From assembly GCA_951406725.2 (NCBI GenBank), contig OX597837.1, forward strand, positions 3,720,001 to 3,784,000: a stretch of DNA of 64,000 nt. The letters run 5' to 3'. The notes below the pieces were generated by a model. The model saw only the letters and a list, made by a program, of their open reading frames with translations. It searched no databases and was not told where the DNA came from. A program made the position numbers and the translations under genes. Positions 4,021-48,347 of the stretch are shown in pieces. The stretch comes from Octopus vulgaris (taxonomy: Eukaryota). Numbering within the stretch: the first letter of the stretch is position 1; every line of letters begins with the position of its first letter.

Positions 4021-4485
4021 CCTACACATACACACATACATACATACAAATATACATATACATATATATATATACAATCCAATACAGGCCCATTCCCTAA
4101 TTTTAATTTTATTATCTTCATTTATTACTTTTGTTATCTTTGATCGCTAGGGCTAAGAATCCTGGCAATAGCTGCTTGTCCGTTTGTCTGTCTACTAGAA
4201 GGCAAGTACTCATTCCCGCACGCACACTCATTAGCACGTACATTCACCCATTCGTACACTCATACACATACACGTACGCACGCGTTATATTCATACATAC
4301 AAACATCTACATACGTTCACGTATATACACATACGTACTCGTACCTACAGATTCGTGTCTACACTTTAGGAGGCTAGTCTATACATATACACCAATAAAT
4401 ATACATATATATATATATATATATATACCCGCATATACATACACACACACACATATATACTCCTACATACAGATACATACCTATA

Positions 4486-4519
<34 letters not shown>

Positions 4520-5051
4520 CATATATATACATATATATACATATATACACATACCTACACATACACACATACACATACACACACATACATACACATATAT
4601 ATACATACACAAACATATATACACACACATATATATTTACATACACACATACACACATACATACGTATACATACATACATACATCTATACATCCATACTT
4701 ACATGCATTTATACGCATACACACACCCATCTATATATATGTATATATATATATATATATACATATATATACTCACACATACATATACAAATCTACGCAC
4801 ACACATACATACATACACGTATACGCATACACGCACATACACATATACATGCGTACCCATACACGTGCACACACGCACGCGCATCCATATAAATACACAC
4901 ACACACATATATATATACACGTGTGCAAGCATACATACATACTCATACGCGCACACATACTTACAAATACATATATGCACACACTTACACACATATATAT
5001 ACATACACATATACATGCATACATACATATATGCATACATACACACACGCA

Positions 5052-5107
<56 letters not shown>

Positions 5108-5170
5108 TATACATACATAGACATACATACACATACATACACATACACATACGTACACACACATATACAC

Positions 5171-5201
<31 letters not shown>

Positions 5202-5448
5202 CACATACACGCATACATATATACACATATACATACATACATATACATACACACACACATACATATATACATATACACTGATACACATACCCATACATAC
5301 ACATGCATATACTTATATTACTACATACTCACATATATAGACATATATACATATACACACATACATATATACATGTACATACACATACGCATGCACATAT
5401 ATATATATATACACACACATATATACACATACATATATATATATATAT

Positions 5449-5491
<43 letters not shown>

Positions 5492-6281
5492 TATACACAT
5501 ATACATGTATACATACGCAAAAATGATACGCATATATACACATACACACACACAGACAGATGCATATACATACATATATATATATAAACTACATATCTAT
5601 ATAAATACAAACATAATACACATATACACACACATATATATACATTCATGCATATACATATACAAGTATACATACACAAACATACACACACACGCGCACA
5701 CATACATATACACACACACATATACAAATACATACATGTGCGGATATGTATGTATGTATATGTATTTGTATATGTGTGTGTGTATATGTATGTGTGCGCG
5801 TGTGTGTGTATGTTTGTGTATGTATACTTGTATATGTATATGCATGAATGTATATATATGTGTGTGTATATGTGTATTATGTTTGTATTTATATAGATAT
5901 GTAGTTTATATATATATATATGTATGTATATGCATCTGTCTGTGTGTGTGTATGTGTATATATGCGTATCATTTTTGCGTATGTATACATGTATATGTGT
6001 ATATGTATGTGTGTGTGTGTGTGTACGTATGTATATATATATATATATATGTATGTGTATATATGTGTGTGTATATATATATATATGTGCATGCGTATGT
6101 GTATGTACATGTATATATGTATGTGTGTATATGTATATATGTCTATATATGTGAGTATGTAGTAATATAAGTATATGCATGTGTATGTATGGGTATGTGT
6201 ATCAGTGTATATGTATATATGTATGTGTGTGTGTATGTATATGTATGTATGTATATGTGTATATATGTATGCGTGTATGTG

Positions 6282-6312
<31 letters not shown>

Positions 6313-6375
6313 GTGTATATGTGTGTGTACGTATGTGTATGTGTATGTATGTGTATGTATGTCTATGTATGTATA

Positions 6376-6442
<67 letters not shown>

Positions 6443-6957
6443 ATGTATGCATATATGTATGTATGCATGTATATGTGTATGTATATATATGTGTGTAAGT
6501 GTGTGCATATATGTATTTGTAAGTATGTGTGCGCGTATGAGTATGTATGTATGCTTGCACACGTGTATATATATATATGTGTGTGTGTGTATTTATATGG
6601 ATGCGCGTGCGTGTGTGCACGTGTATGGGTACGCATGTATATGTGTATGTGCGTGTATGCGTATACGTGTATGTATGTATGTGTGTGCGTAGATTTGTAT
6701 ATGTATGTGTGAGTGTGTATATATATATATATATATATATACATATATATAGATGGGTGTGTGTATGCGTATAAATGCATGTAAGTATGGATGTATAGAT
6801 GTATGTATGTATGTATACGTATGTATGTGTGTATGTGTGTATGTAAATATATATGTGTGTGTATATATGTTTGTGTATGTATATATATGTGTATGTATGT
6901 GTGTGTATGTGTATGTGTGTATGTGTAGGTATGTGTATATATGTATATATATGTATA

Positions 6958-7001
<44 letters not shown>

Positions 7002-7460
7002 TATGTATCTGTATGTAGGAGTATATATGTGTGTGTGTGTATGTATATGCGGGTATATATATATATATATATATATGTATATTTATTGGTGTATATGTAT
7101 AGACTAGCCTCCTAAAGTGTAGACACGAATCTGTAGGTACGAGTACGTATGTGTATATACGTGAACGTATGTAGATGTTTGTATGTATGAATATAACGCG
7201 TGCGTACGTGTATGTGTATGAGTGTACGAATGGGTGAATGTACGTGCTAATGAGTGTGCGTGCGGGAATGAGTACTTGCCTTCTAGTAGACAGACAAACG
7301 GACAAGCAGCTATTGCCAGGATTCTTAGCCCTAGCGATCAAAGATAACAAAAGTAATAAATGAAGATAATAAAATTAAAATTAGGGAATGGGCCTGTATT
7401 GGATTGTATATATATATATGTATATGTATATTTGTATGTATGTATGTGTGTATGTGTAGG

Positions 7461-11375: not shown

Positions 11376-12000
11376 CAATAATAAATCTCTGAACGAGATG
11401 TAAACAGTAACCGCTCGACAACGTAAAGTATACTAGCCATCTCAATATGGCTAACCACTAAGGGTGGGAGTAACAGCTTTTGTTATATTTCTGCTGCTTT
11501 TAAATAAAGCATACTACTCTACCTTTGATATTTGAGTACTCTCTTTTCCACCTTGTTTCACATTTATGTGCTTACCCCGGTATATATATATATATATATG
11601 TATATATATGTATGTGTGTGTATTTGTGTGTGTATATATCTATGTATGTATGTATATATGAGACAGAGACGAGTGAAGAGTGAGAAGGGAAAGTAAAAGA
11701 TAAATAGAATGAGTGATAGGGAAGCGCAAATTCATATATGTGTACAAGTATATGCACATATGTCTGTGCTTTGTGTTCGAGTATCTGAAATTATGTAAAT
11801 ATAGATAAGATGTATATTTATATACGTATATCGATATATATTTGTTTGCATCTGTGTATATATATGTGTATATATATGTATATATATATATATATATATA
11901 TAAATATATATATATTAAGTTACATAGGGTGACAGATAAATACTTGGGTAGATAACTACATAAGCAGATTAATATACATAGATACATATATACATATACA

Positions 12001-15761: not shown

Positions 15762-16499
15762 AAAAACATCAGAGATTCCCAAACATCAAAAGGGGTAGAT
15801 ACAAATGAGGGTGTAAGTTTAACTGCATTGAAGAAAGTTCGATTCCTGGAGATCCGATGAAAGGTCTTGAACTTACAGAATTTGTGCATGTCCATATATA
15901 GCTCATAGTGAATTATTAATCAAGTTATGTGAAGAAATTTTGGGTACAATCGTGCGAAATTTCAGGGAATCCGAGTGAGAAGCAAAATGACAATCTTATT
16001 CTGTAGAGGAACAGATTGTTATTGAAAATTACAAGAATCACAGAGAGAAGAGGAAGGAAGTAGAATTTAGTCAGTTACTGCTATTAAATGCTATCAAAGA
16101 GAAGGGAACGGGAAGCTAAGGGGAGGGACACAAGTTGATACTATAAGAAAAATCTAAGCTTATTTGGTGCAAAATTCGAACTGAGGTCAATTAATTTATT
16201 TCTTTATTTATTAATGTTACTATTAATAGATTGTCAGGTTACAATGAGAGGTCAGTAGAAAGGAAAGAAAAAAAGGAGTTGTTTTCTAATGAAACCAAAC
16301 AATTATATTATTATTATATTATATTATATTATATTATATTATATTATATTATATTATATTATATTATATTATAATATATTATAATAGGTTCGGGATTAGC
16401 AGAATTAATTATTAGTGTAAAAGAAACTAAGAAGTTTAACTAACTAATTTTTTATTGGTAGGTTAAAGTGAAATAGACTAAGAAATAGAGATATAAAAT

Positions 16500-18563
16500 A
16501 AATCACACATAGAAAGAATCAAAAAGAAAATTAATAGGTTTTTTAAAGATTTCAACCTTAGCATAACCTATGAACCAGGCATTAAAATAGCTAATTTTCT
16601 AGATATTACTTTAGACCTTAACTCCAAACTACATTATCCATTTAGAAAAGAAGGTGAAATAACTAGTTACGTAAGTAAATTATCTAATCATCCCCCAAAT
16701 ATAATTAATTCCTTAATTAGAAATATTTCCATGAGAATATCCAAATTATCGTCTAATTTTGATATATTTAACTCACACTCAGGACATTACAATGAGGCGT
16801 TATCTAGAGCAGGATATAACCAAAAAATTACATTTATTGATATGGAAAACTTACAAACTCATAATAATTTTAATAATTTAAATAGCAATAACCACATAAA
16901 CAACAAAAACGATCAAGCCGAAAAGATACGTAGAGGTAGATTTAATACATCTAATCGTAATGATAATAAGTACAAGGATAAATACATAGACCATAACATA
17001 GATAGCCCTGATAAGACAATCTTAGAGAAAATTAAGAAACATACAATTAGTAACGAAGGCAACAATAATGACCAAGCCAGAAATGATAGTAGAAATAGAT
17101 TTACAACGGCAAAGTACCCTAATGATATTAAGAACATTAATAAAAACATAGTAGTGAACACTTGTAATAAGGATAAAATAAACTTGGATAAAACTAATAA
17201 ACATGCAAATAGGAACATTAATAAATACAAAGAATCTGATGAGAGTAGAACAATTCTAACAGCCCTAACTCTAATTCTAAGAAATTTAATAAGAAAGACA
17301 TAATATGGCTAAACATCCCTTTTAACTGTGCGGCTTCATCAGATATTCAGAGTAGATTCAAAATAATTCTTGAAAAAAATTTTCCATCCTCTCATAGATA
17401 TCATAAAATTATTTCTAAAAAAACAGTCAGAATTTCTTATTCAACCCTCCCAAATATGTCCACTTTAATAGCTAAGATCAATAATAATAACATAAAACTA
17501 GCCAGAAAAAATTTAAACAATAAAAATAAAAATACAATTGAAAATTGTAATAACATTACTGAAAGTAATAATTGCAACAATGATAATAAGGAATGTCATA
17601 TAATAAATATAACCAATAGCTATAGAATTGTTAACAATAATAATAACATAAATAGGAATGATTATGTTAATAATAGGAATAATACCAGGAATGTAAGTAC
17701 AGTGAATGAGGACAACAATGTTATCAGCAATAACACTACACATTTAGAAAACAATACCGACAACAATACTAACAGCATCAACAATATCAATAATGATAGT
17801 AGGGTTATAGAACCAAATGATAGTGTAGGAATACCGATAAATGATAACACTACTTTAGGTAATAACATTAACTACAATAATGATAACATTATTTTAGATA
17901 ACAACACCAATAATATTAATAATGAAAGTATGGCTTTAGAACCAAATGAAAATGTAAGAATACCAATAAGTGATAATACTACTTTAGATAATAATATTAA
18001 CTACAATAATGATAAAGTTATTTTAGATAGCAGCAATAACCAAAATCATGATAAATATACCCGCACTGCTTCGAGTAACAGTAATATGAGACTTCTATCC
18101 TCAAGTTATTCTACTTCAAATTATAATTCCCCTAGATGTAACTGCAGAATTAAATCAAAATGCCCGGCACCTGGTTTATGCGGGTTAAATAACATAATCT
18201 ACAAATGCTCCATAACCACAGATAATAATAAATTCACTTATGTTGGATGTACTGTAAATTTTAAGAAAAGATTGAGTAATCATCTATCCTCCTTCAGATT
18301 ACGTCATAAAGCTGATAGCACCACTCTTTCTAGTAAAATTTGGGAACTAAAAAACAATAATATCAAATATAACCTTAATTGGGAATTAGTCAGAAGAGCA
18401 ATACCCTATAAAAATAGCAGAGTAGGTTGTCAACTTTGCTCCATGGAAACATTTGAAATACTAATGTATAGAAAAAAATAGGGAAATTTCACTGAACAGC
18501 AGAATTGAATTAGGAATTTCTTGTATACACGCTCGAACTAAGACTCTTAAATATTTTAAATGA
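16500..18563 (+). pseudogene. Penelope-like RT C-terminus/thumb plus GIY-YIG endonuclease, with two frameshifts and Asn-rich insertions
   Basis: Translates as ERIKKKINRFFKDFNLSIT..ANFLDITLDL..YPFRK..SNHPP..RISKLSS..YNEALSRAGY; then IIWLNIPF..NFPSSHRYHKI..TVRISYS; CNCRIKSKCP..CGLNNIIYKC..YVGCTVNFKKRLSNH..TTLSSKIWELK..CQLC..LNSRIE..C.H. Frameshifts near 17250-17290 and 18475. Confidence 0.9.
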
Positions 18564-20091
18564 TATTTTAATTGACAACTGTATATTAAAATCACTTTGT
18601 ACAAAATCATTTTGATTTATACTTTACTCCTACATAGTATATTATATATTTAACTAGACAGATACGATCTAACTAGCTATGATTATATTCTCTCTCTAAC
18701 TGTACTATTTAATACTTATTGATTTAAGCTATTTGATTTATTTCTATTAGACTATATAGATAATTTAAATTTTGCTCTATTTTTATCTCTATTTCTTAGT
18801 CTATTTCACTTTAACCTACCTATAAAAAATTAGTTAGTTAAACTTCTTAGTTTCTTTTACACTAATAATTAATTCTGCTAATCCCAAACCTATTTTAATA
18901 TATTATATTATAATATAATATAATATAATATAATATAATATAATATGATATAATATAATATAATAATAATATAATTGTTTGGTTTCATTAGAAAACAACT
19001 CCTTTTTTCTTTCCTTTCTACAGACCTTTCATTGTAACCTGACAATCTATTAATAGTAACATTAATAAATAAAGAAATAAATTAATTGACCTCAGTTCGA
19101 ATTTTGCACCAAATGAGCTTAGATTTTTCTTATAGTATCAACTTGTGTCCCTCCCCTTAGCTTCCCGTTCCCTTCTCTTTGATAGCATTTAATAGCAGTA
19201 ACTGACTAAATTCTACTTCCTTCCTCTTCTCTCTGTGATTCTTGTAATTTTCAATAACAATCTGTTCCTCTACAGAATAAGATTGTCATTTTGCTTCTCA
19301 CTCGGATTCCCTGAAATTTCGCACGATTGTACCCAAAATTTCTACACATAACTTGATTAATAATTCACTATGAACTATATGGACATGCACATATTCTGTA
19401 AGTTCAAGACCTTTCATCGGATCTCCAGGAATCGAACTTATCTGTGATTTTTGTAAATTTCAATAACAATCTGTTCCTCTACACGATATGACAGTCACTT
19501 TGCTTCTTACTCGGATTCTCAGAAATTTCGCATGACTGTATCCAAAATTTCTTCACATAACTTGATTAACAATTCACTATGAGCTATATATGGACATGCA
19601 CAAATTCTGTAAGTTCAAGACCTTTCATCGGATCTCCAGGAATCGAACTTTCTTCAATGCAGTTAAACTTACACCCTCATTTGTATCTACCCCTTTTGAT
19701 GTTTGGGAATCTCTGTAGCATGTGTTTAGAGAGTACCAGATACCTTTAGATGTGCCTTTATTCCATGATGGAATTTTTCAATAAGTGTTTCTGTTCTTTT
19801 TTTTGTTTGAGGTTACGGCCAGCAGTACCATGCACCACATCACAGAGAAGATAATAGAGATGTTGAAAATTCAAAGCCTTTGAAACTCAAGAGAGGCCAT
19901 GTTCAGTGTCAATCCCACTCTCCAAACAACGTAGGCATTTTTTCCCAAAAGAAGAAATATTCAGCACCATTCAAGATCATTCGATGGAAACAAAGTCGCA
20001 GGTGTTACCGAGTAGAAGGCACCTGCCTAAGTTGCAACATAGTGGACCCGGAACCATAAGGCTGGGAGGAAAGCTTCTTACAACACAACCA

Positions 20092-22010: not shown

Positions 22011-22216
22011 TATATTATGTGTATATATATATATATATATATAACATATGGGGGATCAGCCATCTGAATGTGGCTAGGGTCAGGGCGGGGTGGTGGGGGT
22101 GTTACTGATGCATTTAGCCCCAGGCGAACATCAACGTCACCAGAAGGGCTGACACCATCTCGGTGTCCTTGCCAGCCTGCAAAGGGAGATCATCCTTCCC
22201 GAAGATACGGATACTA

Positions 22217-22259
22217 CACACGGACCGGTTTCGAGGTTATTGCCTCTTGTCAACGTATG
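22217..22259 (-). ncRNA. Type-I hammerhead ribozyme, U3-A8 core variant
   Basis: Minus strand: CAUACG-UUGACAA-GAGG CAAUAA CCUC-GAAA-CCGG-UC-CGUGUG; lies in a ~225-bp GC-rich insert (22050-22276) between (TA)n tracts. Confidence 0.75.
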
Positions 22260-22275
22260 GTAAGCAGCGCTCTTC

Positions 22276-22322
<47 letters not shown>

Positions 22323-22324
22323 TA

Positions 22325-22652
22325 GATAATGAGGGAGATAAATATAGATAGATAGATAATGAGGGAGATAAATTTAATATTAATTTAATTAATATCAATT
22401 TAAAACCCGTAGCCTAGCATACAAAAATCTGAAAAATCAGAGAAAATTCTAATACATGTGTATATTTAAAGGGCTAAAAAACCACTATGTGGTCAGCCAC
22501 ATGCTAGAAGTAGATCACCTGCGATCAAACTACAAAGAAAAGAATGTTTTCTAGAGAAATTCCGCGGACACCAGAAAAATATGCGGGCAAGACAGATGAA
22601 AATTATATAAAAAAAAGAATTAATCGCAGACCTAGGTTTCACCTTTAAATGT
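22325..22652 (-). mobile_element. PLE 3' tail remnant with a half HHR
   Basis: Reverse complement has GAAACCTAGGTC at 22629-22640, truncated by a SINE; the first ~115 bp are repeated at 23075-23188. Confidence 0.5.
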
Positions 22653-22654
22653 AC

Positions 22655-23054
22655 TCTTACTCTATTACTCTTTTACTTGTTTCAGTCATTTGACTGCGGC
22701 CATGCTGGAGCACCGCCTTTAGTCGAGCAAATCGACCCCGGAAATTATTCTTTGTAAGCCCAGTACTTATTCTATCGGTCTCTTTTTGCCGAACCGCTAA
22801 GTGACGGGGACGTAAACACACCAGCATCGGTTGTCAGGCAATGCTAGGGAGACAAACACAGACACAAACACACACATACATATATATATACGACAGGCTT
22901 CTTTCAGTTTCCGTCTACCAAATCCACTCACAAGGCATTGGTCGGCCCGGGGCTATAGCAGAAGACACTTGCCCAAGATGCCACGCAGTGGGACTGAACC
23001 CGGAACCACGTGGTTGGTTAGCAAGCTACTTACCACACAGCCACTCCTGCGCCT
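22655..23054 (-). mobile_element. tRNA-derived SINE, full length
   Basis: Near-identical to 21320-21732. Confidence 0.85.
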
Positions 23055-23501
23055 ATATATATATATATATATATAGATAGATAGATAATGAGGGAGATAA
23101 ATTTAATATTAATTTAATTAATATCAATTTAAAACCAGTAGCCTAGCATACAAAAATTTGAAAAATCAGAGAAAATTCTAATACATGTCAAGTAGTGTGG
23201 AGCGACTGACCTCCCTTGTTCGAAGGTTATATGGATACAGTTTGTGTATCAAATAGCTAACTTAAGGCGATGGCCTCATGGAGCTAATAAGCGGACAGCT
23301 TTTTTCTTATTTTTATAAGAATGCCATATTAGTATGGCGATAACTATTATTTTCCGGGAAAGCTGCCGCTGTTCTCTTTTAGAGAGACTTAGTTATTTTA
23401 ATATTTCTATTATTGAAAACAAGTGGATGTATTCCACCGAAACTAGGTAAATAAAACCATCGAACAGAGATTGTCGGAAGCGACACCTACTGGCTGGCTA
23501 C

Positions 23502-23543
23502 GCTGCATTGAAAAGGGGCAATACCCCGAAACGCGTCTGTAGC
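23502..23543 (+). ncRNA. Type-I hammerhead ribozyme, U3-A8 core (unit 1)
   Basis: GCTGCA TTGAAAA GGGG CAATA CCCC GAAA CGCG TC TGTAGC; cleavage predicted after C23537; stem I extends via CTGGC/GCCGG beyond an internal loop. Confidence 0.8.
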
Positions 23544-23863
23544 TGCCGGTCAAGTAGTGTGGAGCGACTGACCTCCCTTGTTCGAAGGTTATATGGATAC
23601 AGTTTGTGTATCAAATAGCTAACTTAAGGCGATGGCCTCATGGAGCTAATAAGCGGACAGCTTTTTTCTTATTTTTATAAGAATGCCATATTAGTATGGC
23701 GATAACTATTATTTTCCGGGAACGCTGCCGCTGTTCTCTTTTAGAGAGACTTAGTTATTTTAATATTTCTATTATTGAAAACAAGTGGATGTATTCCACC
23801 GAAACTAGGTAAATAAATCCATCGTACAGAGATTGTCGGAAGCGACACCTACTGGCTGGCTAC

Positions 23864-23905
23864 GCTGCATTGAAAAGGGGCAATACCCCGAAACGCGTCT
23901 GTAGC
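23864..23905 (+). ncRNA. Type-I hammerhead ribozyme, U3-A8 core (unit 2)
   Basis: Identical to unit 1. Confidence 0.8.
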
Positions 23906-24225
23906 TGCCGGTCAAGTAGTGTGGAGCGACTGACCTCCCTTGTTCGAAGGTTATATGGATACAGTTTGTGTATCAAATAGCTAACTTAAGGCGATGGCCT
24001 CATGGAGCTAATAAGCGGACAGCTTTTTTCTTATTTTTATAAGAATGCCATATTAGTATGGCGATAACTATTATTTTCCGGGAACGCTGCCGCTGTTCTC
24101 TTTTAGAGAGACTTAGTTATTTTAATATTTCTATTATTGAAAACAAGTGGATGTATTCCACCGAAACTAGGTAAATAAATCCATCGAACAGAGATTGTCG
24201 GAAGCGACACCTACTGGCTGGCTAC

Positions 24226-24267
24226 GCTGCATTGAAAAGGGGCAATACCCCGAAACGCGTCTGTAGC
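24226..24267 (+). ncRNA. Type-I hammerhead ribozyme, U3-A8 core (unit 3)
   Basis: Identical to unit 1. Confidence 0.8.
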
Positions 24268-24430
24268 TGCCGGTCAAGTAGTGTGGAGCGACTGACCTCC
24301 CTTGTTCGAAGGTTATATGGATACAGTTTGTGTATCAAATAGCTAACTTAAGGCGATGGCCTCATGGAGCTAATAAGCGGACAGCTTTTTTCTTATTTTT
24401 ATAAGAATGCCATATTAGTATGGCGATAAC

Positions 24431-24473
<43 letters not shown>

Positions 24474-25238
24474 CATATAAAGCTTCCATTTTAGTTGTTT
24501 CGATAATCCAGACTGGCGCTACTGCATTTCCACTTTTCCACTGTGACCAAGTTTTAAGCAGTCGGCGATAATTGATATGGTTCTTGGGACTTTATAAATC
24601 ACTGGATTATGAAAAGCATTAAATTACTGTTATCTCTGAAAATAAAATTTAGATCGATATTGACTGGGTTTAAGGCTTGGGTATCAGTAAATATGCAGGA
24701 ATATGATGCAAACTACCATGTATGCATATAAGTACGTATGTATGCATATATGCATGTAAGTATGTATGAATGTCTCCCCTGCATTGAATCACTTAAATTA
24801 TCCCTCTGAAGAAGGACCTGGTTTCTATCAATGCAGATAACGAAAACAATGTCTCATTTTGAACCTGAGAAAAGTCTTACTCAGTTTTATTATTATTATT
24901 TTTTTACTGTTCTGCTTACAGATTGTATTTGTAATGTGCAAATCGGATGATTACTTTTACTGAAAATCCAAGCTTATCGGACGCACATACTCAATGTATG
25001 TTTGTTCATCGGTTCGCTGCAAATAGGGCACTGGGGACGACGGCTAATAACACTCTTTGTTAAAACTACACGCCTCCAGTCTTATCCAGGAGTGATGAAT
25101 ACCGATATTTCGCCATTTCTTGTCGTTAATCAACATTACGCACCCGAATCGAACCGAGCACAAACTGTATCGCCAGTCTATGTCCATAATGCATATAATA
25201 CTAGCGCTGTCGTTAATTTATCATTGAATGTACATACT

Positions 25239-25324
<86 letters not shown>

Positions 25325-25364
25325 CAAGAAAGAGAGAGCACTGCTTTCATATGCTTATTTTCTC

Positions 25365-25615
25365 CCTGCCTGAGGTGGTCTTTTCTGTAGGCTTTTCTTT
25401 CCATGGATGAACCTAATCTTGTTTCTTACTTTTTAAAAAATTTCTTTCTGTGATACACGATCCCTTTTGATCGCTTTTTTCTCCCGATCCCTTTTGATCG
25501 GAATTTTACATTTATTCCCTTTTTTTTTTACTTTTTCTTTTCCATTTTCGAAAAGAAAAGCTCTACATTTGTATTTGTCCCTTTATGTTCAGCCCTGTGT
25601 GGCCAATAAAGAAGG
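25365..25615 (+). mobile_element. Dispersed repeat, probable LINE 3' tail (also 48450-48605 and 60100-60410)
   Basis: Shared AAAAGCTCTAC..TTGT..TTTGTCC...CAGCCCTGTGTGGCCAATAAAGAA end, associated with (ATCT)n. Confidence 0.55.
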
Positions 25616-25626
25616 CTATCTGTATA

Positions 25627-26425
25627 TACGATGACTGATCAATAAGTATCCGGACTGGAGCTATAACAACAAAACTGCAACACGTACCAAATTGGCATTG
25701 AATCTCTTTCAAAGTCCTCTCCTTCGGAAGCCACACACTTAATCCAGTGCTGTTTCCATTGATGGAAGCATTCCTGGAACTCGTTATCTGAGATAATCAA
25801 CAGCTGCCTCGTCGCATTCAGTTTACACGACGACCTGAAGACTTTTCAAGCGGAATCTGATTTTTGGAAAGAGGATAATGTCGTAAGGGGCGAGATTTGG
25901 GGAATACGGTGACTGTCGGACCTGGGGAATGCTGCGCCACGCCAAAAAATGCTGCCAATCTGCGCTGAATGGGCATGTGCATTGTCAGCTGAAATCAGTT
26001 TTGGCACAAATATGGCAGACACTCCTCTCATACCCGAAACATCAGTGATAATGGACTGAACTAAACCCTAACTAATCTGTACATTCTCCGATAACTCACG
26101 GGTGGTAATTAAACGATTTCCCCTCAGAGTTTTACTCACATCTGCGATGCTTTTCTCAGTTCTTGTTACGGGTCTCCCAGAGCGTTCGTCGCTATCAACA
26201 TTTTTTCGGTTCACACACTTCTCTCCGTACACTTTTGGCAGAATTTGATGCAGATTCTCTGCTCCACTTACTCTATCATGGCCAATGCGACGATCACACG
26301 CTACACACGTTCCTTCCGAGCACTGCCATTTACAGCACAAGTGAGCTAGAACGTTAAAACGCCAATCCGTACCAAGCGGCTTAACTCTGCGTGCTTTAGC
26401 TTCGTTACTATGTCGACAATCCGGA
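25627..26425 (-). mobile_element. Degraded mariner transposon
   Basis: Minus-strand peptides DSDERSGRPVT..LRGNRLITTRELSE, PYSPNLAPYD and FQECFHQWKQHWIKCVASEGEDFE; TIR-like TACGATGACTGATCAATAAGTATCCGGACT. Confidence 0.85.
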
Positions 26426-26631
26426 TCAAAACACATACACACACACCGATACACAGGCGTATATATATATATAGATGAGAAAGTTGGTTTGTGAAAGCAC
26501 GTGGTTGAATAAATAGAAAATACTAAAAAGTGAAAAAGCTACAGAAGGCTTGTTTTAAAAGGTTAAAAATATTTGCGTCAATATGTCTGAAGAATATTAT
26601 AAATTTTTTTCTTACAATGACATAGTTTAGA

Positions 26632-26669
26632 AGAAATGACCGGTTTCGCGTTCAGCTTTTCAAATTTCT
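26632..26669 (-). ncRNA. Minimal hammerhead ribozyme, U3-A8 core
   Basis: Minus strand: AGAAAU-UUGAAAA-GC UGAAC GC-GAAA-CCGG-UC-AUUUCU. Confidence 0.7.
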
Positions 26670-26752
26670 AACATCGTTATGTTTATGTTGAGAAGAGTTC
26701 TAGATAAGGGGAGGTAATAAGTGATTTCTTCCGGTGTAAGGGAGATAATCGC

Positions 26753-27110
26753 TTAAAATTTTTTGCCTTTCCTTTGGAGTGAATTTCTCTGTATAAGTAT
26801 GTTGGAATGGTTTAGTCTGGGCTTGTACTTTTCAATGAAGAATGTTTCCTTGTTTAGTCTAATTTGTGTTGGTGTTCCGATAGCACATTGGTAAAATGGA
26901 AAGATAAAAAATTTTGGTAGTAGTTGCTTTGTGCATTTCTCAATGTGCTCACTAAAAGGTATCATTCTGTATTCTGGGAATGCAATCTGTTGTCGATGCA
27001 GTGTGCATCTACGTCTGAGTGATAGTCCCGTGGATCCCACGTAGTCTTGGTGGCAGACCGAGCATTTTATGATATAAATTATGTTTTCAGAGGCACAAGT
27101 AAAATTAAAT
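26753..27110 (-). pseudogene. PLE GIY-YIG endonuclease fragment
   Basis: FNFTCASENIIYIIKCSVCHQDYVGSTGLSLRRRCTLHRQQI..SEHIEKC..RLNKETFFIEKYKPRLN; 5'-truncated. Confidence 0.85.
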
Positions 27111-27434
27111 TTCTGTCCCTTTTAGTGAGCACATTGAGAAATGCGCAAAGCAACTACTACCACAATTTTTAATCTTTCCATTTTACCAATGTGCTATCGG
27201 AACACCAACACAAATTAGACTAAACAAGGAAACATTCTTCATTGAAAAGTACAAGCCCAGACTTAACCATTCCAACATACTTATACAGAGAAATTCACTC
27301 CAAAGGAAAGGCAAAAAATTTTAAGCGATTATCTCCCTTACACCGGAAGAAATCACTTATTACCTCCCCTTATCTAGAATTCTTCTCAACATAAACATAA
27401 CGATAACTCTTCTCAACATAAACATGACGATGTT

Positions 27435-27472
27435 AGAAATTTGAAAAGCTGAACGCGAAACCGGTCATTTCT
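27435..27472 (+). ncRNA. Minimal hammerhead ribozyme, U3-A8 core (inverted arm)
   Basis: AGAAAT TTGAAAA GCTGAACGC GAAA CCGG TC ATTTCT. Confidence 0.7.
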
Positions 27473-27588
27473 TCTAAATTATGTCATTGTAAGAAAAAAA
27501 TTTATAATATTCTTCAGACATATTGACTCAAATATATATTTTTTAACCTTTTAAAACAAGCCTTCTGTAGTTTTTTCACTTTTTACTA

Positions 27589-27646
<58 letters not shown>

Positions 27647-27895
27647 GATTAAGTATAAGTAAGTATAATTATTTATTCTTTATTCCATCCTAATTCCGAA
27701 ACGCGCGTCCATAGGTGACCAGATATTGATTGATTTTCGTTACTTTTCCTCTCTGCCTGTGTGATTGTTTTCAAGTATTTTGGTTTCTCTGGGAGTCCCT
27801 TTTTAAAGTAGAAGAAATAGCTAACGTTTTTTGGCTGCCATTTCTAAACTTCGGTATGTGGTAAAGCAAATCTTTGATGAACCCTATTTATTAAG

Positions 27896-30285: not shown

Positions 30286-30504
30286 GCATATATAATATAT
30301 ATACTTATGTATACACATAAAATAAATATATAAACGTTTATATACACAGATGTATATGTATGCATATATAAATATATACATATATACACATACATAGATA
30401 CATATATTTGGCGGTGCCCCAGCATGGCCACAGCTCATAAGCTGAAACTAGAATCAATCAATCAATCATGTATGTGTCTGCACACACACATACACACACA
30501 CACG

Positions 30505-30543
<39 letters not shown>

Positions 30544-31819
30544 TTATATACATATGCATACATATGCGTACACACATATGTTAACACATACAACCAGTAT
30601 GAAGTTGCACCGCACACTCCTACGTAAATATACACACTACCATGTATATTTATATACACATATATTCCCGTTTGCAATTAATGCCAAACATTTTGACCAC
30701 ACACACACACACACATACACACCCACACACACCGAGCCACACACTAACGCACATACACACAAACACACACACTCACAGATACACATACATCTGCAACCAT
30801 CCCCACACATGCCTGCATACGATGTTACCTCCACATTCTATGCCATCTGACCTACCTTAATACGCACATGCGCATCATATACATTCTAACATTCACCTAT
30901 ATACTTACTCAGTTTACGCACATACATCTAGTATACACTCATCCGTACATCTAATGGATTCCTCATAATCATATAACTACATACATTCTCGTATACAAGT
31001 ATCTTTATACACACTCGTATACATGCTTATACATTCTCACATGCATACGTCTATACTCTTTTTCACTCGCACTAATCTGTGTATTTTGACTGACACTTTT
31101 AACTGGCATATAGCTTCTTATCACATAAATTCAGTTATGGTGTCTTCACCTGCAGTCTACTTGTTTGTGTATGTTAAATGGAGCGATTTTACGATCTTAA
31201 GTCTCTCACATACATACATGCATACACACACATATATATAAAGACGTACATACGTATGTATAGATATAGAAGATATGTAGATATATATATACATATATGT
31301 ATATACATACTTTCATACATATCTACAAACAAACGCACACTTGTTTTAGTTTTTATTCCACTATATACAGCTTCCCATAAAATGTGTGTAACTCCAATAT
31401 GTCCAAATTAAATTCTTTTCCCCAAGTTCCAGTATTCTAAATGAAATACTGTATTCACTGTCCTTTAGACCGAAAACGCTAAGTTAAATAACCTGTTTCT
31501 GTTGCTAATGTTGATATAAATTCACTTTGCAATTACATGTTGGTTTAACAGTAAATTCATTTATATTAAGATTTAATCTGCATGCTTACACCCTTCGAAA
31601 CTACAGTAGAAAAGTTGATACCACTTTGAAATAATATGGAAACTGAAGTTATAAATGGAAGCTAATTTGACGCCAGATCTTCTACTGATATTAGATAAAT
31701 TTGTTACTTTGATCTTCAGAGTATTATGGAATTCTTTTCGCTAACAATTCTTTATTATCTTATCGCCATTTCGACAGAGTTTCATTTCGCCAGTAGGAAA
31801 CTTCAGAAACTTTTATTAC

Positions 31820-31874
31820 CTGCAGGTTCAGCCGCACTGTCTTTTCTCTAACAGTTCTATTGTATGAAGAGCAA
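31820..31874 (-). other. Candidate 55-nt exon (duplicate at 40720-40774)
   Basis: Minus strand: TTCCTTTTGTTGTTGCAG| ... CTGCAG|GTAATA. Confidence 0.4.
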
Positions 31875-32780
31875 CTGCAACAACAAAAGGAACATCAAGC
31901 CTCAGTTTCCTGAATAACACCAGGGAAAATATTGTGGTTAGTAAAGGAAATATGATTAAGCCCTCAATACCTTGTCCCCAAACAATACAAAATTGCAATA
32001 TCACAGCATGCTCATGCGACGAGAATGAAAGCACAGAGTGAAATACGTGCAGAAAAATAGGGAAGAAATTCACATGAAAATACTTAATATAAAACAACGA
32101 AAACATATGAAGAACATTTTTTTTTTTACTTAACGATAACCGAATTCCCTTAAGAAGAAAATAACGAAGACAATGTAGAGGACGAAGATGAACTAAGATG
32201 TACCGTCCTTCGAAAACAAAATAACAAAATTAATAAAGAAAATTAATAAAGGAAATTGCACATCTGTGATGCTACGAACTTTGTGAACAAATTAAAATGA
32301 CATATAGATTAAGGTTGTATAAAGTATATGCAAAATATAGATCACAAGTAAAATTTAAATTTAGACATCTCGAATATAAAAAAGAATACACTTGATGTTG
32401 ATAATTTTCAGTATAAGAAACCTACAAAAGTGGTCATTGGCAAAGTTGGTTGCAGTCAAATACTTTATGAAAATGGCGAAGTAAGCAAGTAAGCAGGGGC
32501 GTGGAGAACTTAATCCAACATGGCCAGAAAATCTTTTATGATTTCTTTCTTTAAATTGTATCATGTTTCAATAATTGTGCGCCGTATTTACTTTCGTGCA
32601 AATACGTGTATACACACATACATACATACATACATACATACATACATACATACATACGTGGATACAATATACATATGTATATACACACACATATATATAT
32701 ATTTTATATACACATAGATGTATATAAGTATGCATATATGTACATAAACATAGGTAGATGGAAACTGAAAGAATCCCGTC

Positions 32781-32820
<40 letters not shown>

Positions 32821-33036
32821 GTGTGAGTGCGCGTGTGAGTGTGTGTATATGTTTGACCCCACCATCGCTTAAGAACAGATGTTGGTGTGTTTACATCCCC
32901 GTAACTTATCGGTTCGGCAAAAGAGACCGACAGTATAACTACTATGCTTACAAAGAATAAGTCCTGGGTCGATTTGTTCGATTAAAGGCGGTGCTCCAGT
33001 ATGGCCGCCGTCAAATCAGTGAATCAAATAAAAAAT

Positions 33037-33077
<41 letters not shown>

Positions 33078-33345
33078 TATCGCGGTCGATAAATTAAGTA
33101 TCAATGAAACTACGTACGTAATCGATTCTTGCCTTACCCCAAATGTCAGGCCTTGTGCCCATAGTAGAAATGATAATTATTAGTGATAGTAGCAATATTA
33201 ATTTCAAATTTTAGCACAAGGCCAGAATTTCGAGGGAGAACTAATCGATTACGTCGACCTTGTTGTTTTGTTGGTACTTGTTTAACTGACCCTAAAAGCA
33301 TGAGAGATAAAGTCAACCTCAACTGAATTTCAGCTCAGATGGACG

Positions 33346-33802
33346 GGATCTTTTCGGTTTGAACGGCAGTTTTTTCTAGCGGTGTCATATCAAATTGTCA
33401 CCTATAATTATGACACCAGTATCGATCTATTGCATTTCAATCTGCTTTAGGGTTAGGGTTAGTTAGGGTTAGTTAGGACTAGGGTTAGGGTTAGGGTTAG
33501 AGTTGGGGGGAAGGGTATATTTTTTCTTCATAAATGTAAATAAACCTAATCTGTTTCTTAAACGAGGGACATATTCATACAGCACAGAATGTTTTTCACC
33601 TCAATAGACGTCATTGATTGGTTGAAATTGCAGAAATTGAAGAAAAAACAACAACAAATATCTTACAAACTATAGAATTTCCTCAATAAAGCCAAGAGAA
33701 AAAGATGTTTTATAAACACATTCTACCAGTATACGAAGTTTAAAATTTTTTAGTTACGTGGAAATTATAAAAAAAAAACTGCCGTTCAAAGCGAAAAGAT
33801 CC
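33346..33802. mobile_element. MITE with ~29-bp TIRs and an 8-bp TSD (duplicate at 42246-42702)
   Basis: GGATCTTTTCGGTTTGAACGGCAGTTTTT ... AAAAACTGCCGTTCAAAGCGAAAAGATCC; GATGGACG on both sides; internal TTAGGG repeats; inserted into a SINE. Confidence 0.9.
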
Positions 33803-34452
33803 GATGGACGAAATTGCGATAAGTATTTTGCCTGACGCTGTAACGATCTTACCAGTTCGCTGCCTTTCAGTAGTAGTAGTAGTAGTAGTAGTAGTAACAT
33901 TAACGCCAATGACTGATGTTGTGTTAGGTCAAATGAAAGAAATGAAAAAAAGAATCAACTATTTTATATGTGTTTTTTTGTCTTTTTAACGCGGTGAACT
34001 TATTCGATTGTTTCATTCTTCTCCTCCACACATTCAGTGGATAATAATAGAATGTAAAAAAAGAATAACGAAAAAAAAAAAAATTACTCGCATCTGATAA
34101 TTTCATTGTTTAGTAACTGATGTTACTAAGCTCAAGTTCGGGTCTCAACTTGCGCAATCTCCTGACAATTGTAATATCGACGCAAATACTATATTTACTC
34201 GAAACTCAGCCAGATACTTTACACGATTACCATAGTATATCGTTGCTAGACTCTTACATCACCGAGATAATAAGGATTATAAAATTGCGCTAGAGAACGT
34301 TGCCAAAATAATTGCATTTACCAAAAATATACAACCTTGTGGGCGGTTCATCCGTGGTGCATTATATATTTATACATGCTTATGAAAGTATCTGTGTGTC
34401 TACACACACACTCACACACATCAGTAGCGTATGGTGATCATTGAGTGTGCTG

Positions 34453-34640
34453 GCATACTGACTATACTATGAGTCATAGTCATACTGACTATACTATAGT
34501 CATACTGACTATACTATAGTCATACTGACTATACTATGAGACATACTGATTATACTACGAGTCATAGTATAGTCATACTGACTATACTATAGTTAGTATG
34601 ACTATACTATACTATGAGGCATACTGACTATACTACTACT
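34453..34640. repeat. ~20-bp palindromic minisatellite (duplicate at 43353-43540)
   Basis: CATACTGACTATACTATAGT units. Confidence 0.85.
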
Positions 34641-35171
34641 ATTACTCAAATTAGGCATAGCAACTGTATTTCTATTCCAAATGCGGGATCATTACTGTAA
34701 ACCTAATTGAATTGGGATACAGATATGTGGCCCTAAAGTAAACTGAATTAATGATAACCTATAAATTGTAAGCATTCTAAAATAAGCCATAATTTTCTTA
34801 TTGCGCGCACTGAAAAATAAGAAATCATATAATTTTATTTACTTAAATTACTTATATGTAAGTTGTGCTCTACCGTGAGACGTAAAAGTTTTGATAACCT
34901 CATCGTACTTTGCTTAAACCAATTTGCTTAAACTGCATTAGTACACTTTTCTTTCAATTGAAAGCAAACCTGTAACCAATGATAGCAAGTATTTATTCGT
35001 TTCAGAGCAGAAAAAGGGGGTTCTACTGAAGTGCTAGTTGTAGTTAGAATTAACTGAATCAATACGAGCATGCGACCGTCGCACAACCTTCGCCATTAAT
35101 GATTTGCCAATCACCCATTATCCTAAGAGATGCCAGGTACCATATTATGATACACACGAAATGTACGCCCC

Positions 35172-35205
<34 letters not shown>

Positions 35206-35349
35206 CACAGGAAATAGTGGGGTTGTGTTAACCGCAGGTGGAGAAATGATAGGAGAGGAAAAATTATAAAAAGGCAGAATGCTAAATTGAAAGTAAATTT
35301 TAATAAAAATGGGTGTATGAAAAATTAAAAAGAAAAAATAATAAATCAA

Positions 35350-35381
<32 letters not shown>

Positions 35382-35384
<3 letters not shown>

Positions 35385-35824
35385 AGTAATTGAATGAATT
35401 ATCTTATTAAGGATAATTCGAAAGATAACCGATACCTGGGTAGCAAATTCACATCAGAAAGAACACGGTTGAAGCTACGTCCATAGGGCATAGACTACGT
35501 GTCTTCGTGCGGATATTTGTATGCTAATCTTAAAATTGTAAGTATATGAAAGAATGGAGTTGAACGACTAGTTAACAAATATAAATGCACAAAAAACTTT
35601 TAGCTGACCGCTCTCAAGGAGCCCATGGGCTCCTTGAGAGCGGTCAGCTAAAAGTTTTTTGTGCATTTTGATGTCGACATAAGTTCCTTGATTTTCCTGA
35701 AGAGAAATCTGCATAATGTACTCCTTATTCCTTCGGAATTAGGAATATGCAGCCTTCGAAACATGTGTCGAGAATAAAGGATATTTGTTAACTAGTCGTT
35801 CAACTCCATTCTTTCATATACTTA
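35382..35824. mobile_element. Small fold-back PLE-type element (duplicate at 44282-44724)
   Basis: 35539-35582 is the reverse complement of 35781-35824; perfect 86-bp palindrome at 35583-35668; HHR in the right arm only; (TA)n flanks. Confidence 0.7.
35691..35775 (+). ncRNA. Type-I hammerhead ribozyme with long stem II (duplicate at 44591-44675)
   Basis: ATTTTC CTGAAGA GAA..CTGCATA..TATGCAG..TTC GAAA CATGTG TC GAGAAT; stem I extends via CCTT/AAGG. Confidence 0.7.
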
Positions 35825-35876
35825 TATATATATATATATATATATATATAGATAGATATAGATAAGTAGATAGATA

Positions 35877-36065
35877 GCCATGATAGATCGTTAGCCATTA
35901 CACATTCTTTATTTTCTATCCTTGTTTCTTTCTGTGTTCCTTTCTGTGGAAGAGCGTAGGCTCGAAACGTTAAAGACTTTTTTCACTTCCCGAGCGTTAA
36001 ACAAACACATCTGCTTGTTGTTTACAGCACCAGTCTTAATCTTTTGTTTTTCTTGTGAATTCTTC

Positions 36066-36070
<5 letters not shown>
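35877..36070 (+). mobile_element. Short PLE-type terminal repeat with a degenerate HHR
   Basis: CTTT CTGTGGA A GAGC GTAG GCTC GAAA CG TT AAAG at 35940-35975 (A6 mutated), then a tail ending in (TA)n. Confidence 0.55.
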
Positions 36071-36103
<33 letters not shown>

Positions 36104-36272
36104 TAGCCTACATACCCGTTAATTCCGGGAAAAGCGGGGCTTATCTATTGCTCCCGTTCTCATAAGTGTTTCGCTAATCAGCAGCAACAATGCAAAGTAT
36201 GTAGCCCTTAAAACATCTTTTGTGCATTTACAGAGCATACGTAACCGTCTTAAATAGGATATTGTTTTTAAT

Positions 36273-36690
36273 AGGCGCAGGAGTGGCTGTGTGGTAAGTA
36301 GCTTGCTAACCAACCACATGGCTCTGGGTTCAATCCCACTGCGTGGCATCTTGGGCAAGTGTCTTCTGCTATAGCCCCGGGCCGACCAATGCCTTGTGAG
36401 TGGATTTGGTAGACGGAAACTGAAAGAAGCCTGTCGTATATATGTATATATATATGTATGTGTGTGTGTCTGTGTTTGTCCCCCTAGCATTGCTTGACAA
36501 CCGATGCTGGTGTGTGTTTACGTCCCCGTCACTTAGCGGTTCGGCAAAAGAGACCGATAGAATAAGTACTGGGCTTACAAAGAATAAGTCCCGGGGTCGA
36601 TTTGCTCGACTAAAGGTGGTGCTCCAGCATGGCCGCAGTCAAATGACTGAAACAAGTAAAAGAGAGTAAGAAAAAGAGAAAAAGAGAGTA
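36273..36690 (+). mobile_element. tRNA-derived SINE, full length (duplicate at ~45175-45590)
   Basis: GGCGCAGGAGTGGCTGTGTGGTAAG A-box region, GGTTCAATCCC B-box, shared body and AG-rich tail. Confidence 0.85.
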
Positions 36691-37297
36691 AATCCCAATG
36701 AGTTAAGCATACCAAAATTGTGAAGAATGTTACGTAATAACAAGCAAATCAGATGTGAGATATTAACAATTCAAAGTAATTCCCAGAGAATATAATCCTT
36801 AGGAGAGCTAGTGTCGAAATAGATTTATAATGAATATAGAAACAGCCTGATATTTAGTTTTACAGTAGACATACAAATAAATATGCATATTGATTTGAAA
36901 ATAGAATAATATAGATTATCAATAGATTTAAAACAGTTACAAATATTACATTTAATTAATAAATACCTGACGATTTGGTATATCTTATTACGTTTGCAGA
37001 GCTTCTTGATAAAACACACTTTTGGTCTTTCCTTGTGGGGCATAAATAGACAAATGATAAGGATTGCCAACTCTTGAGCAACCCACATAAAGTTGACTAT
37101 GAGAGAAAAACTGGTACCGCAAGGTTCAGACCTGCCACATCCAAGGACTGCCCCTGAGCCTTTTAGTGCTCGTTGCGAAGCTCAGTTTCAACGGAAATTG
37201 CAGACGTTTGTACTGGAAAGGTATATCCGAGGGGATAAGTAGAATTCTAGGGACGAATACAGGTTCACCGCTTGGAGTTTGCATGAGGAAAATACTG

Positions 37298-37731
37298 GGA
37301 TCTTTTCAGTTTGAACGGCAGTTTTTTCTAGCGGTGTCGTATGAAATTGTCACCCATAATTATGACCCTTGTATCGATCCATTGCATTTCAATGTTTTAG
37401 GCTTAGGGTTAGAGGTAGGGTTAGTTAGGGTTAGGAGTGGGGGAAGGGTACCTTTTTCCCTTCAGAAATGTAAATAAACCCAATCTGTTTCTTAAACGAG
37501 GGACATATTCATACGGCACAGATTGTTTTCACCTCAATAGACATCATTGATTGGTTGAAATTGCAGAAATTGAAGAAAAAACCCAAATATCTTACAAACT
37601 ATAGAATGTTGTCAATAAAGCCAAGAGAAAAAGATGTTATATAAACACATTCTACCAGTATACGAAGTTTAAAATTTTTTAGTTACGTGGAAATTATTTA
37701 AAAAAAACTGCCGGTGAAACTGAAAAGATCC
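37298..37731. mobile_element. Second copy of the 8-bp-TSD MITE (duplicate at 46200-46632)
   Basis: Same TIRs; flanks AAATACTG/AAATACTC (7 of 8 match); inserted in the Helitron. Confidence 0.9.
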
Positions 37732-38503
37732 AAATACTCTTAGGCAGTGACATAGCAAACAGAGCCAAATATACTCTCGTCTGAAAGAAACTAATATTAT
37801 CTCTGATAGTTTCTATTATATTAATGTAATGATATGGTTGTGTTAGGACTGGTGTGAAGTATGATATCTGTATCATTAGTTTAATGATGTGGCTGGTGTA
37901 AAAAAGCGCTGTGGTGTATAATTTAGTTATATTACATTATTTAATGGAGGTAATTTGGCTTTGAGACGATTTACGAGGTATAAGGAACTTAATAGTAACG
38001 TTGTAATAAATGGTGAGAAGAAAGCTGATGCTCTCTCGCTGGCTTACTTATTCCATAGACTTACATGTAAGAACTACTTATATGAACTCTACTATGATAA
38101 AGATGTGATTAGCTTCCGTTTAACGAATCTACTCACAAGGTATTCGCCAAATTTAAGATATTGTAAAAGCTACTGTGTGATCACGCAAGGCGGTAGAATT
38201 TCCTATCTACATGGCTATTCCTGCAAAGATTCAATGTATCACGGCCTTTTTAAAATACAATATAACTACCAACCTACCACCTTCATACATACATAAACAC
38301 AGTAAAATCCATTTAATTCCAAGATTCAAACAAAAACGATGATGAAATAAGTACTAGTGCATAACTCGTACTTATTTCATCGACCCCGAAAGGATGAAAG
38401 GCAAAGTCGACCGCAGTGGAATTTGAACTCAGAACGTAACGGTAGACGACACACTGCTAAGTATTTCGCCCAGCGTGCTAAAGAGTCTGACAACTCGCCC
38501 CCT

Positions 38504-38568
<65 letters not shown>

Positions 38569-38716
38569 TAAAATATTATTTAAAAAAAAAAAAATTTTTT
38601 ATGTATTAGACATTCACTAGTACAACATCAAAAAAAAAAACCCAATATATATGGCACAGAACTTCCAACCTGTTGTCTCTTGAGGTCCCTGGGTCAAACA
38701 TAGAATAATAATAATG

Positions 38717-38851
<135 letters not shown>

Positions 38852-39257
38852 GCCCTGATGCAGTACCAGGCAGTGGCTCTCATGGCTTCTGATCTTAACT
38901 GATTGGAAGTGTTATCATGTACATTGTTTTGTCTTGATATAAAAGATGGGCTACAGCAAATATTCTGCTCAATACCACAGATTTGCTTGTCAGTTGTTTG
39001 ACCGTAACCAGTTGAGCATGTCCCTTAGTGGCCGACGATATGTGCATCTCTGGTCAAGAGCAGAAGTAGTTGGGGAGCATCATAGCCATGTTTTGAGAGG
39101 GATTCTTTGGGGTTTGAATAATTCACCTCTGGAGACATGGGTGGTTTTTTCAACATCCTTAAACAACCCTTATTCAGGGACCGTTTGAGCGGGATGGGCT
39201 ACTCAACCTGAAGAAAATTCTAACTGGGCCCCACCTGCAAGGTCATGCGCTGTTTAT

Positions 39258-39357
39258 NNNNNNNNNNNNNNNNNNNNNNNNNNNNNNNNNNNNNNNNNNN
39301 NNNNNNNNNNNNNNNNNNNNNNNNNNNNNNNNNNNNNNNNNNNNNNNNNNNNNNNNN
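39258..39357. other. Assembly gap (100 N)
   Basis: Run of N. Confidence 1.

Positions 39358-48347
<8,990 letters not shown>

Follow-up and report, generated by a model that had tools for sequence, protein, structure and literature searches.

Hammerhead motifs with a U3-A8 core in retrozymes and a Penelope-like element of Octopus vulgaris

Six hammerhead ribozyme motifs were found in a 64,000-nt stretch of the Octopus vulgaris genome (GenBank assembly GCA_951406725.2, contig OX597837.1, positions 3,720,001 to 3,784,000 of the forward strand; hereafter the window), each with U3-A8 in place of the canonical C3-G8 pair. The reading favoured here, to which a probability of about 0.65 is assigned, is that they are type I hammerhead folds carried by two related families of non-coding retrozymes with units of ~360 nt (F1 and F2) and by the terminal repeat of a Penelope-like element (PLE) encoding a reverse transcriptase (RT) and a GIY-YIG endonuclease (F3). 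The motifs are predicted to cut RNA as pairs. Penelope-type enzymes likely copied their carriers into (TA)n, and the U3-A8 core likely stems from few founders in which the 3-8 pair would have switched in both directions. The elements and the U3-A8 core are of known kinds; what is new is a set of relatives elsewhere in the genome that carry all four 3-8 combinations, among them likely intermediates of the swap.

Hammerhead motifs and carrier elements in the window

The 64-kb window was scanned with a hammerhead descriptor in which positions 3, 7 and 8 were unconstrained. Exactly six good matches were obtained, every one U3-A8 with GAAA and GUC, against a mean of 0.3 and a maximum of 3 in 100 block-wise dinucleotide shuffles. 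A first-pass annotation had reported hammerhead motifs with UUGACAA or UUGAAAA cores at these places, and the scan bears this out; the coordinates given there (22217-22259, 26632, 27435 and 27472) mark where stem I ends. With a relaxed descriptor, one weak AT-rich match was added at 62524 (-). At Rfam gathering scores none of the six motifs in the window was found, and only U6 matched. The F3 pair belongs to a single inverted insertion, one motif in each arm, and the F2 trio to a single array, so that the six motifs represent three insertions:

22217..22259 (-): F1 type I hammerhead, stem I of 6 bp, core UUGACAA at 22253-22247, stem II of 4 bp, palindrome ACCGGU, predicted cut after C17 at 22223
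23502..23543 (+): F2 hammerhead 1, core UUGAAAA at 23508, palindrome ACGCGU, predicted cut after 23537
23864..23905 (+): F2 hammerhead 2, core UUGAAAA at 23870
24226..24267 (+): F2 hammerhead 3, core UUGAAAA at 24232
26632..26669 (-): F3 hammerhead of the left arm, core UUGAAAA at 26663, 2-bp stem II, palindrome ACCGGU, predicted cut after 26638
27435..27472 (+): F3 hammerhead of the inverted arm, core UUGAAAA at 27441, predicted cut after 27466

Stem I comprises 6 bp in all three families; F1 and F2 have a stem II of 4 bp, F3 one of 2 bp. Stems I-III had been described as paired, which is correct for stems I and II. Stem III is impossible as a hairpin, since it would consist of two pairs round a 2-nt loop. 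No stable helix III was found within the monomer, only a 6-nt palindrome (ACCGGU or ACGCGU) through which two copies would pair over 6 bp (-8.3 and -7.5 kcal/mol), as in the dimers described for animal type I hammerheads (PMC4209133). The motifs lie in the following elements:

22040..22277 (-): F1 copy, 5'-truncated, of a non-coding family unit of 358-360 nt, between (TA)n tracts and ending 183 nt past the cleavage site
23187..24436 (+): F2 array, 3.5 tandem non-coding units of 362 nt, 99% alike, ending in (TA)n 175 nt past the last cleavage site
26467..27121 (-): F3 left arm, a 5'-truncated Penelope-like element with the end of the open reading frame (ORF), the 3' repeat with its hammerhead and the long 'tail' end
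26753..27121 (-): C-terminal GIY-YIG endonuclease of the F3 ORF (Pfam PF01541, 22.7 bits against a cut-off of 22.6)
27118..27594 (+): F3 right arm, a shorter inverted copy of the F3 element with the short end

The F1 copy is 97% identical to the tandem unit of another locus (L033), and the circular fold of the F2 unit gave z = -6.1 against 60 shuffles. Units of both families are tandem, stop-rich (F2 in all frames) and 40% GC, with one hammerhead each. They are inserted at (TA)n and dispersed over many chromosomes, with 338 (F1) and 1,340 (F2) exact matches when the seven core bases are left unconstrained. Both families have the genomic features of retrozymes without long terminal repeats (non-LTR retrozymes), namely dispersed, multicopy, non-coding tandem units of 150-450 bp with one hammerhead each and a GC content below 50%. 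A 78-nt fragment at 11376-11453 (-) is 81% identical to positions 147-224 of the F1 unit and stops at the long-tail position. Just upstream of the F2 array, a 122-nt duplication (98%; 22338-22459 and 23067-23188) flanks a SINE-like repeat at 22652-23062.

The 3' ends of these elements recur at two positions. Of 65 F1 ends tallied with overlapping loci excluded, 58 lie at +174-186 or +221-228 past the cleavage site, 33 of them at +174 to +186; in 20 partly overlapping F2 loci the ends lie mostly at +175-179 or +235-239. One short and one long arm were present in all five two-armed F3 loci. Two 3' ends per family match what the available part of PMC11167929 describes for Penelope-like elements, namely a 'tail' and two internal sites at which RT starts.

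The F3 left arm is 82% identical to a full-length element (locus L042) in which an RT ORF lies between direct repeats spaced 3,996 nt, and the GIY-YIG part of the window ORF is 86% identical to the end of that ORF. The RT domain (RVT_1) scored 33.6 bits in a further locus (L041) and 28 bits, below the cut-off, in L042; in the longer F3-family proteins no GIY-YIG Pfam match was found at E 0.01. F3 has the features of an endonuclease-bearing (EN+) Penelope-like element: a single ORF with RT and C-terminal GIY-YIG, terminal repeats with hammerheads, 5' truncation, an inverted copy and a tail. A CX4CxxC linker occurs in three elements of this type (L042, L050 and L051), and a CX2-5CxxC linker before the endonuclease is given as a Neptune-type motif in the accessible text of PMC8557442. 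The window holds a second 5'-truncated Penelope-like element at 15835-19715, with ORF pieces at 16497-18481 that include a GIY-YIG end and an Asn-rich insert; it is flanked by a 666-nt inverted repeat (98%), and the descriptor found no hammerhead in the part present.

The three families had been called unrelated, a description that stands for F3 alone. The units of F1 and F2 align colinearly at 50% identity, their non-ribozyme part scores 116 against 68 ± 7 (maximum 91) in 200 shuffles, and older families bridge them on the tree. No homology to F1 or F2 was found for F3 outside the motif, and it was rejected as their parent. Since F1 and F2 are homologous and bridged, and F3 has no homology to either, two lineages rather than three are recognized: by sequence comparison, F1 and F2 are one superfamily and F3 is separate.

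The 3-8 pair across the genome

The selection acting on the motif was examined in an alignment of 15 hand-picked rows from the F1/F2 superfamily; F3 lies outside that alignment. All six pairs of stem I and all four of stem II show two-sided changes, and 91% of stem I/II cells are paired, against 27-47% in slid controls. U4, G5, A6, A9, GAAA and GUC are constant across families, the rows having been partly chosen by that pattern. Because stems I and II covary across the 15 rows, the overall fold is conserved, and the alignment indicates that the hammerhead fold is under selection. The 3-8 pair is Watson-Crick in 9 of the 15 rows, a share set by the choice of rows; strict selection on this pair would go beyond the evidence, and a Watson-Crick pair is probably preferred.

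Core states were counted over the 2.8-Gb genome as exact matches to a palindromic-loop pattern (xUGANyA-N7-16-GAAACSSGUC), with the reversed pattern as the control. U3-A8 gave 3,716 matches (control 50), U3-G8 154 (control 75) and C3-A8 153 (control 41). C3-G8 gave 155 matches, 65 of the 100 listed being F1 copies by hand count; its control is higher (184) and is uninformative. Watson-Crick states account for 3,871 of the 4,178 raw matches, and each mismatched state amounts to ~4% of the U3-A8 count. By copy number, then, mismatched cores are far rarer than U3-A8, and the outcome that the first-pass annotation had named as a refutation, equal frequency of mismatched cores, did not occur. Not all 153 C3-A8 matches can be accepted as hammerheads, as a single repeated sequence accounts for 42 of the 100 listed and lies antisense in the RT ORF of a long interspersed nuclear element (LINE) at both loci fetched.

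The recurrence of U3-A8 had also been offered as evidence of selection on catalysis, and this argument fails in part. The U3-A8 matches derive mostly from three amplifications (338, 1,340 and 1,195 exact core-free matches for F1, F2 and F3), so that the copy counts are not independent events, and C3-A8 and U3-G8 lineages have been amplified too.

A second pattern, for minimal motifs (3' part GAAACGUH), gave 18,903 C3-G8 matches (control 1,109), whereas U3-A8 was at background (2,791 against a control of 2,680). U3-A8 was therefore rejected as the dominant hammerhead of the genome, in which minimal motifs are mostly C3-G8. The under-count predicted for CUGANGA descriptors is severe within the palindromic-loop class, 96% of which (4,023 of 4,178 raw matches) is missed, so retrozyme surveys should use YUGANRA. 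Over both shapes it is modest, at about a sixth of the above-background total, because of the 18,903 minimal C3-G8 motifs. Some 18,000 canonical minimal hammerheads above background, mostly of two or three families, are present in the genome; 4,000-9,000 are quoted for coelacanth and Xenopus in the part of PMC4209133 consulted, the octopus count being higher but its pattern looser. In the window, 3' halves of minimal hammerhead-like motifs (GAAACGUU) occur at 35964 (+), 44866 (+) and 54878 (-); they resemble abundant genome families and have no full 5' core.

Within families, core states were tallied among the first 100 free-core matches, those of F1 by hand. F1 comprised 46 U3-A8, 43 C3-G8, 9 C3-A8 and 2 singletons (of 338 matches in all), F2 was UUGANAA in 98 (of 1,340), and F3 comprised 90 U3-A8, 4 U3-G8 and 6 others (of 1,195). 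In an older family with 15 free-core matches, 10 were C3-A8 and 5 U3-A8, with no G8. Altogether, four lineages with an unpaired or wobble 3-8 core have been amplified. F3 copies make up 43 of the first 100 U3-G8 matches listed (hand count), and on a tree of 29 rows, left after 5 truncated ones were removed from 34 and with positions 3, 7 and 8 masked, F3 U3-G8 is a single clade of 18 rows (support 100/100) that includes a full-length element. Three further U3-G8 loci are a weakly supported sister group of F2. A U3-G8 group with a 7-nt stem-loop II (L049) was not counted as a hammerhead lineage, as it lacks the 1.1-2.1 pair, and some mismatched old single copies may reflect decay. The compensated cores with a purine at 3 and a pyrimidine at 8 (G3-C8 and A3-U8) were absent from the 315 free-core rows listed. 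No report of a natural series of mismatched 3-8 intermediates was found in the accessible literature on hammerhead core variants.

The order of change was sought in the F1 family. A first tree, with positions 3, 7 and 8 masked, used 47 rows drawn from 198 segments as full-length, family-like and distinct, with F2 reduced to 7 rows. C3-A8 formed one group of 11 rows (88/89) between U3-A8 and C3-G8, and the A8 carriers lay together on one side of a 98/94 branch. In a second tree, masked likewise, of 46 rows picked by hand with closer outgroups, the outgroup rows being selected by core pattern, the C3 carriers were a 96/97 clade inside the U3-A8 rows. Divergence between loci was 8.4% for U3-A8, 3.0% for C3-G8 and 1.2% for C3-A8. 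These trees suggest that F1 likely passed from U3-A8 through C3-A8 to C3-G8 and so regained the canonical pair. C3-A8 in F1 is unlikely to be a simple recombinant, because it shares 7 diagnostic columns with each of the two parents and the two sets are interspersed along the unit, which speaks against a single crossover. CpG decay is a possible source at C7-G8 in F1, but the copies are one clade and the older family has mostly U7 or G7.

A possible mechanism and its alternatives

By analogy with known elements, neighbouring motifs in a tandem transcript would pair through the palindrome and cut after GUC, releasing RNA of unit length, which may then become circular. This RNA would be copied into (TA)n by a Penelope RT-endonuclease that starts at one of two internal sites, which would yield two 3' ends and inverted arms. 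Selection would keep the overall fold and prefer a Watson-Crick 3-8 pair, while C3-A8 and U3-G8 would be tolerated long enough to amplify, so that the swap would proceed by single transitions.

U-G and C-A pairs have similar wobble geometries. A bolder extension of the scheme, tentative and somewhat less probable than its opposite, is that the genome keeps every step of a compensatory change in a catalytic tertiary pair as amplified subfamilies of one retrozyme superfamily (U3-A8, C3-A8 and C3-G8 and, separately, U3-G8). The half-way forms would have kept enough activity to replicate, perhaps through wobble-type pairs that the dimer or a Penelope protein stabilises, and F1 would have run back to the canonical state. 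If true, the subfamilies would record, with dates, how a ribozyme core crossed a fitness valley in nature, in backgrounds that are otherwise 90-94% identical. The F1 series, near-identical units differing at positions 3 and 8, allows a test of whether cleavage makes a difference to retrozyme and PLE spread, and also of how a catalytic core gets past a mismatched intermediate during a compensatory change.

Several observations weigh against the favoured reading. F1 and F2 have no homology to the F3 or F4 repeats, the only families compared in the search for a link to the terminal repeat of an autonomous PLE (F4 being a fourth hammerhead family), and a single locus (L015) joins F2 to a different Penelope ORF. 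The minimum free energy fold of F3, with its 2-bp stem II, is not the hammerhead, and other F3 subfamilies have no 1.1-2.1 pair. The direction of change in F1 is also open to challenge: F2 alone as outgroup gave no root (log-likelihood difference 0.06), the root of the free 47-row tree fell among C3-G8 rows, the reverse order was not rejected (p-AU 0.081), and the eight core changes on the second tree include possible decay after insertion, with outgroups picked by core pattern. In addition, PLE hammerheads are slow in vitro and cleave as dimers. The Anolis hammerhead requires protein, and insertion in vitro does not depend on that ribozyme (PMC11167929, available part), and of nine Xenopus dimers one cleaved and eight did not, according to the accessible part of Li et al. 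2026 (bioRxiv 10.64898/2026.07.22.740005). At L015, a pyrimidine-rich Penelope RT-endonuclease fragment (1746-2958 (-), ~30% identical to F3) continues straight into position 107 of the F2 unit; this junction, seen at one locus only, may reflect a template switch and thereby hint at a mobilising partner.

Alternatively, the 3-8 state may be nearly neutral and the hammerhead a passenger not needed by the Penelope machinery, with U3-A8 common through GC-to-AT transitions in an AT-rich genome and chance founders. The amplification of the four mismatched or wobble lineages, one of them autonomous with a full-length copy and another with copies 1.2% apart, is in keeping with this idea, as is insertion in vitro without need of cleavage (PMC11167929, in the portion available). 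All amplified states are, moreover, one transition apart, with no G3-C8 or A3-U8 in the listed rows although G-C is the only rescuing swap in one mutagenesis. However, stems I and II covary over 50% divergence with U4, G5, A6, A9, GAAA and GUC fixed, 3,871 of 4,178 raw matches are Watson-Crick, the best F1 tree moves toward GC against the mutation bias, and the minimal hammerheads of the same genome remain C3-G8, with U3-A8 there at background. Near-neutrality is considered unlikely, though it is the strongest competitor.

It is more doubtful still that strict selection for catalysis fixed the double change separately in three independent families. The isolation of F3 outside the motif is compatible with this, and the best tree, in which the sister of the F2 U3-A8 rows is the U3-G8 group and that of F1 is U3-A8, would permit separate origins in F1 and F2; the mismatched states are also scarce (~4% each of U3-A8), and 42 of the 100 C3-A8 matches listed are one chance-type repeat. 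Yet F1 and F2 are one superfamily, the counts are copies of few sources, and strict selection would forbid the amplified mismatch lineages. That the motifs are chance matches in repetitive DNA is scarcely credible: loose patterns do catch such matches, as the LINE sequence and the minimal U3-A8 count illustrate, but the six matches against 0.3 in shuffled windows, the 3,716 against 50 genome-wide, the covariation and the place in a Penelope-like terminal repeat refute it.

Neighbouring features and comparison with known systems

One further hammerhead-related element lies 230 nt beyond the span of the first-pass annotation:

27661..27895 (+): F4, a 5'-truncated copy of a fourth hammerhead family, in which only the 3' half of the motif remains (27698-27709)

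Complete F4 copies are canonical C3-G8, with a 5' core in 7 of the 10 loci fetched (six CUGANGA and one with A6 changed). The family has a long stem II and an 8-nt palindrome, and 932 first-look candidates were found in the genome. Elsewhere in the window, a decayed frame at 25600-26420 (-), which includes the ORF 26068-26538, presumably resembles a Tc1/mariner transposase. A block of ~8.9 kb with the same ORFs and repeats is present twice (30450-39100 and 39350-48000) with an N gap near 39260, and is either a tandem duplication or an assembly artefact. A long inverted repeat of microsatellite-like sequence (4107-5740 and 5745-7374) shows a sharp switch in GC skew, and a U6 snRNA gene or copy is located at 51078-51187 (+) (Rfam, 107 bits).

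The F3 element resembles the PLE hammerheads of Cervera and de la Pena (2014; PMC4209133, available part), which share a type I motif in a terminal repeat, a small palindromic helix III, a dimer design and inverted pairs 100-700 bp apart. U3-A8 in PLE hammerheads (Schistosoma mansoni) and the need for an adapted descriptor, with ~1,300 matches, were published there in 2014. In that account U3-A8 is found in minimal motifs without loop III. The minimal motifs of octopus show it no more often than background, and it prevails instead among motifs whose loop is palindromic and 2 nt long; the part consulted reports no mismatched subfamilies or order of change, unlike the octopus series. Poseidon of Anolis (Frangieh et al. 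2024; PMC11167929, same portion) shares two fixed 3' ends ('tail') downstream of the hammerhead and AT-rich targets. Its hammerhead is C3-G8 and overlaps the ORF start, whereas F3 has a Neptune-type linker, and the octopus tails are ~40-60 nt.

The F1 and F2 families share with the animal non-LTR retrozymes (PMC7229834 and Li et al. 2026, each in the part available) a low GC content, one type I hammerhead per unit and a dispersed, non-coding tandem arrangement, the units measuring 350-390 bp in a mollusc. Those retrozymes have been proposed in the same sources to be non-autonomous PLE derivatives. F1 and F2 differ from them in a core that is mostly U3-A8 and in having no sequence link to the PLE repeats compared.

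That U3-A8 is a known natural variant was rightly stated in the first-pass annotation (PMC3088659 and PMC4209133, as far as available). Its further statement that the variant retains activity is correct in part: a U3-A8 hammerhead is described, by citation, as active in vitro in the accessible text of PMC3088659, but the effect depends on context, since in one full pairwise mutagenesis of a type III hammerhead only the G-C swap rescued (PMC9901934, available part). The natural U3-A8 hammerheads of Perreault et al. (2011; PMC3088659, same text) show the same covariation, and 2-bp stems II and weak stems III are called common there. Several U3-A8 examples are given there, whereas the octopus genome holds thousands of copies, with relatives in four states.

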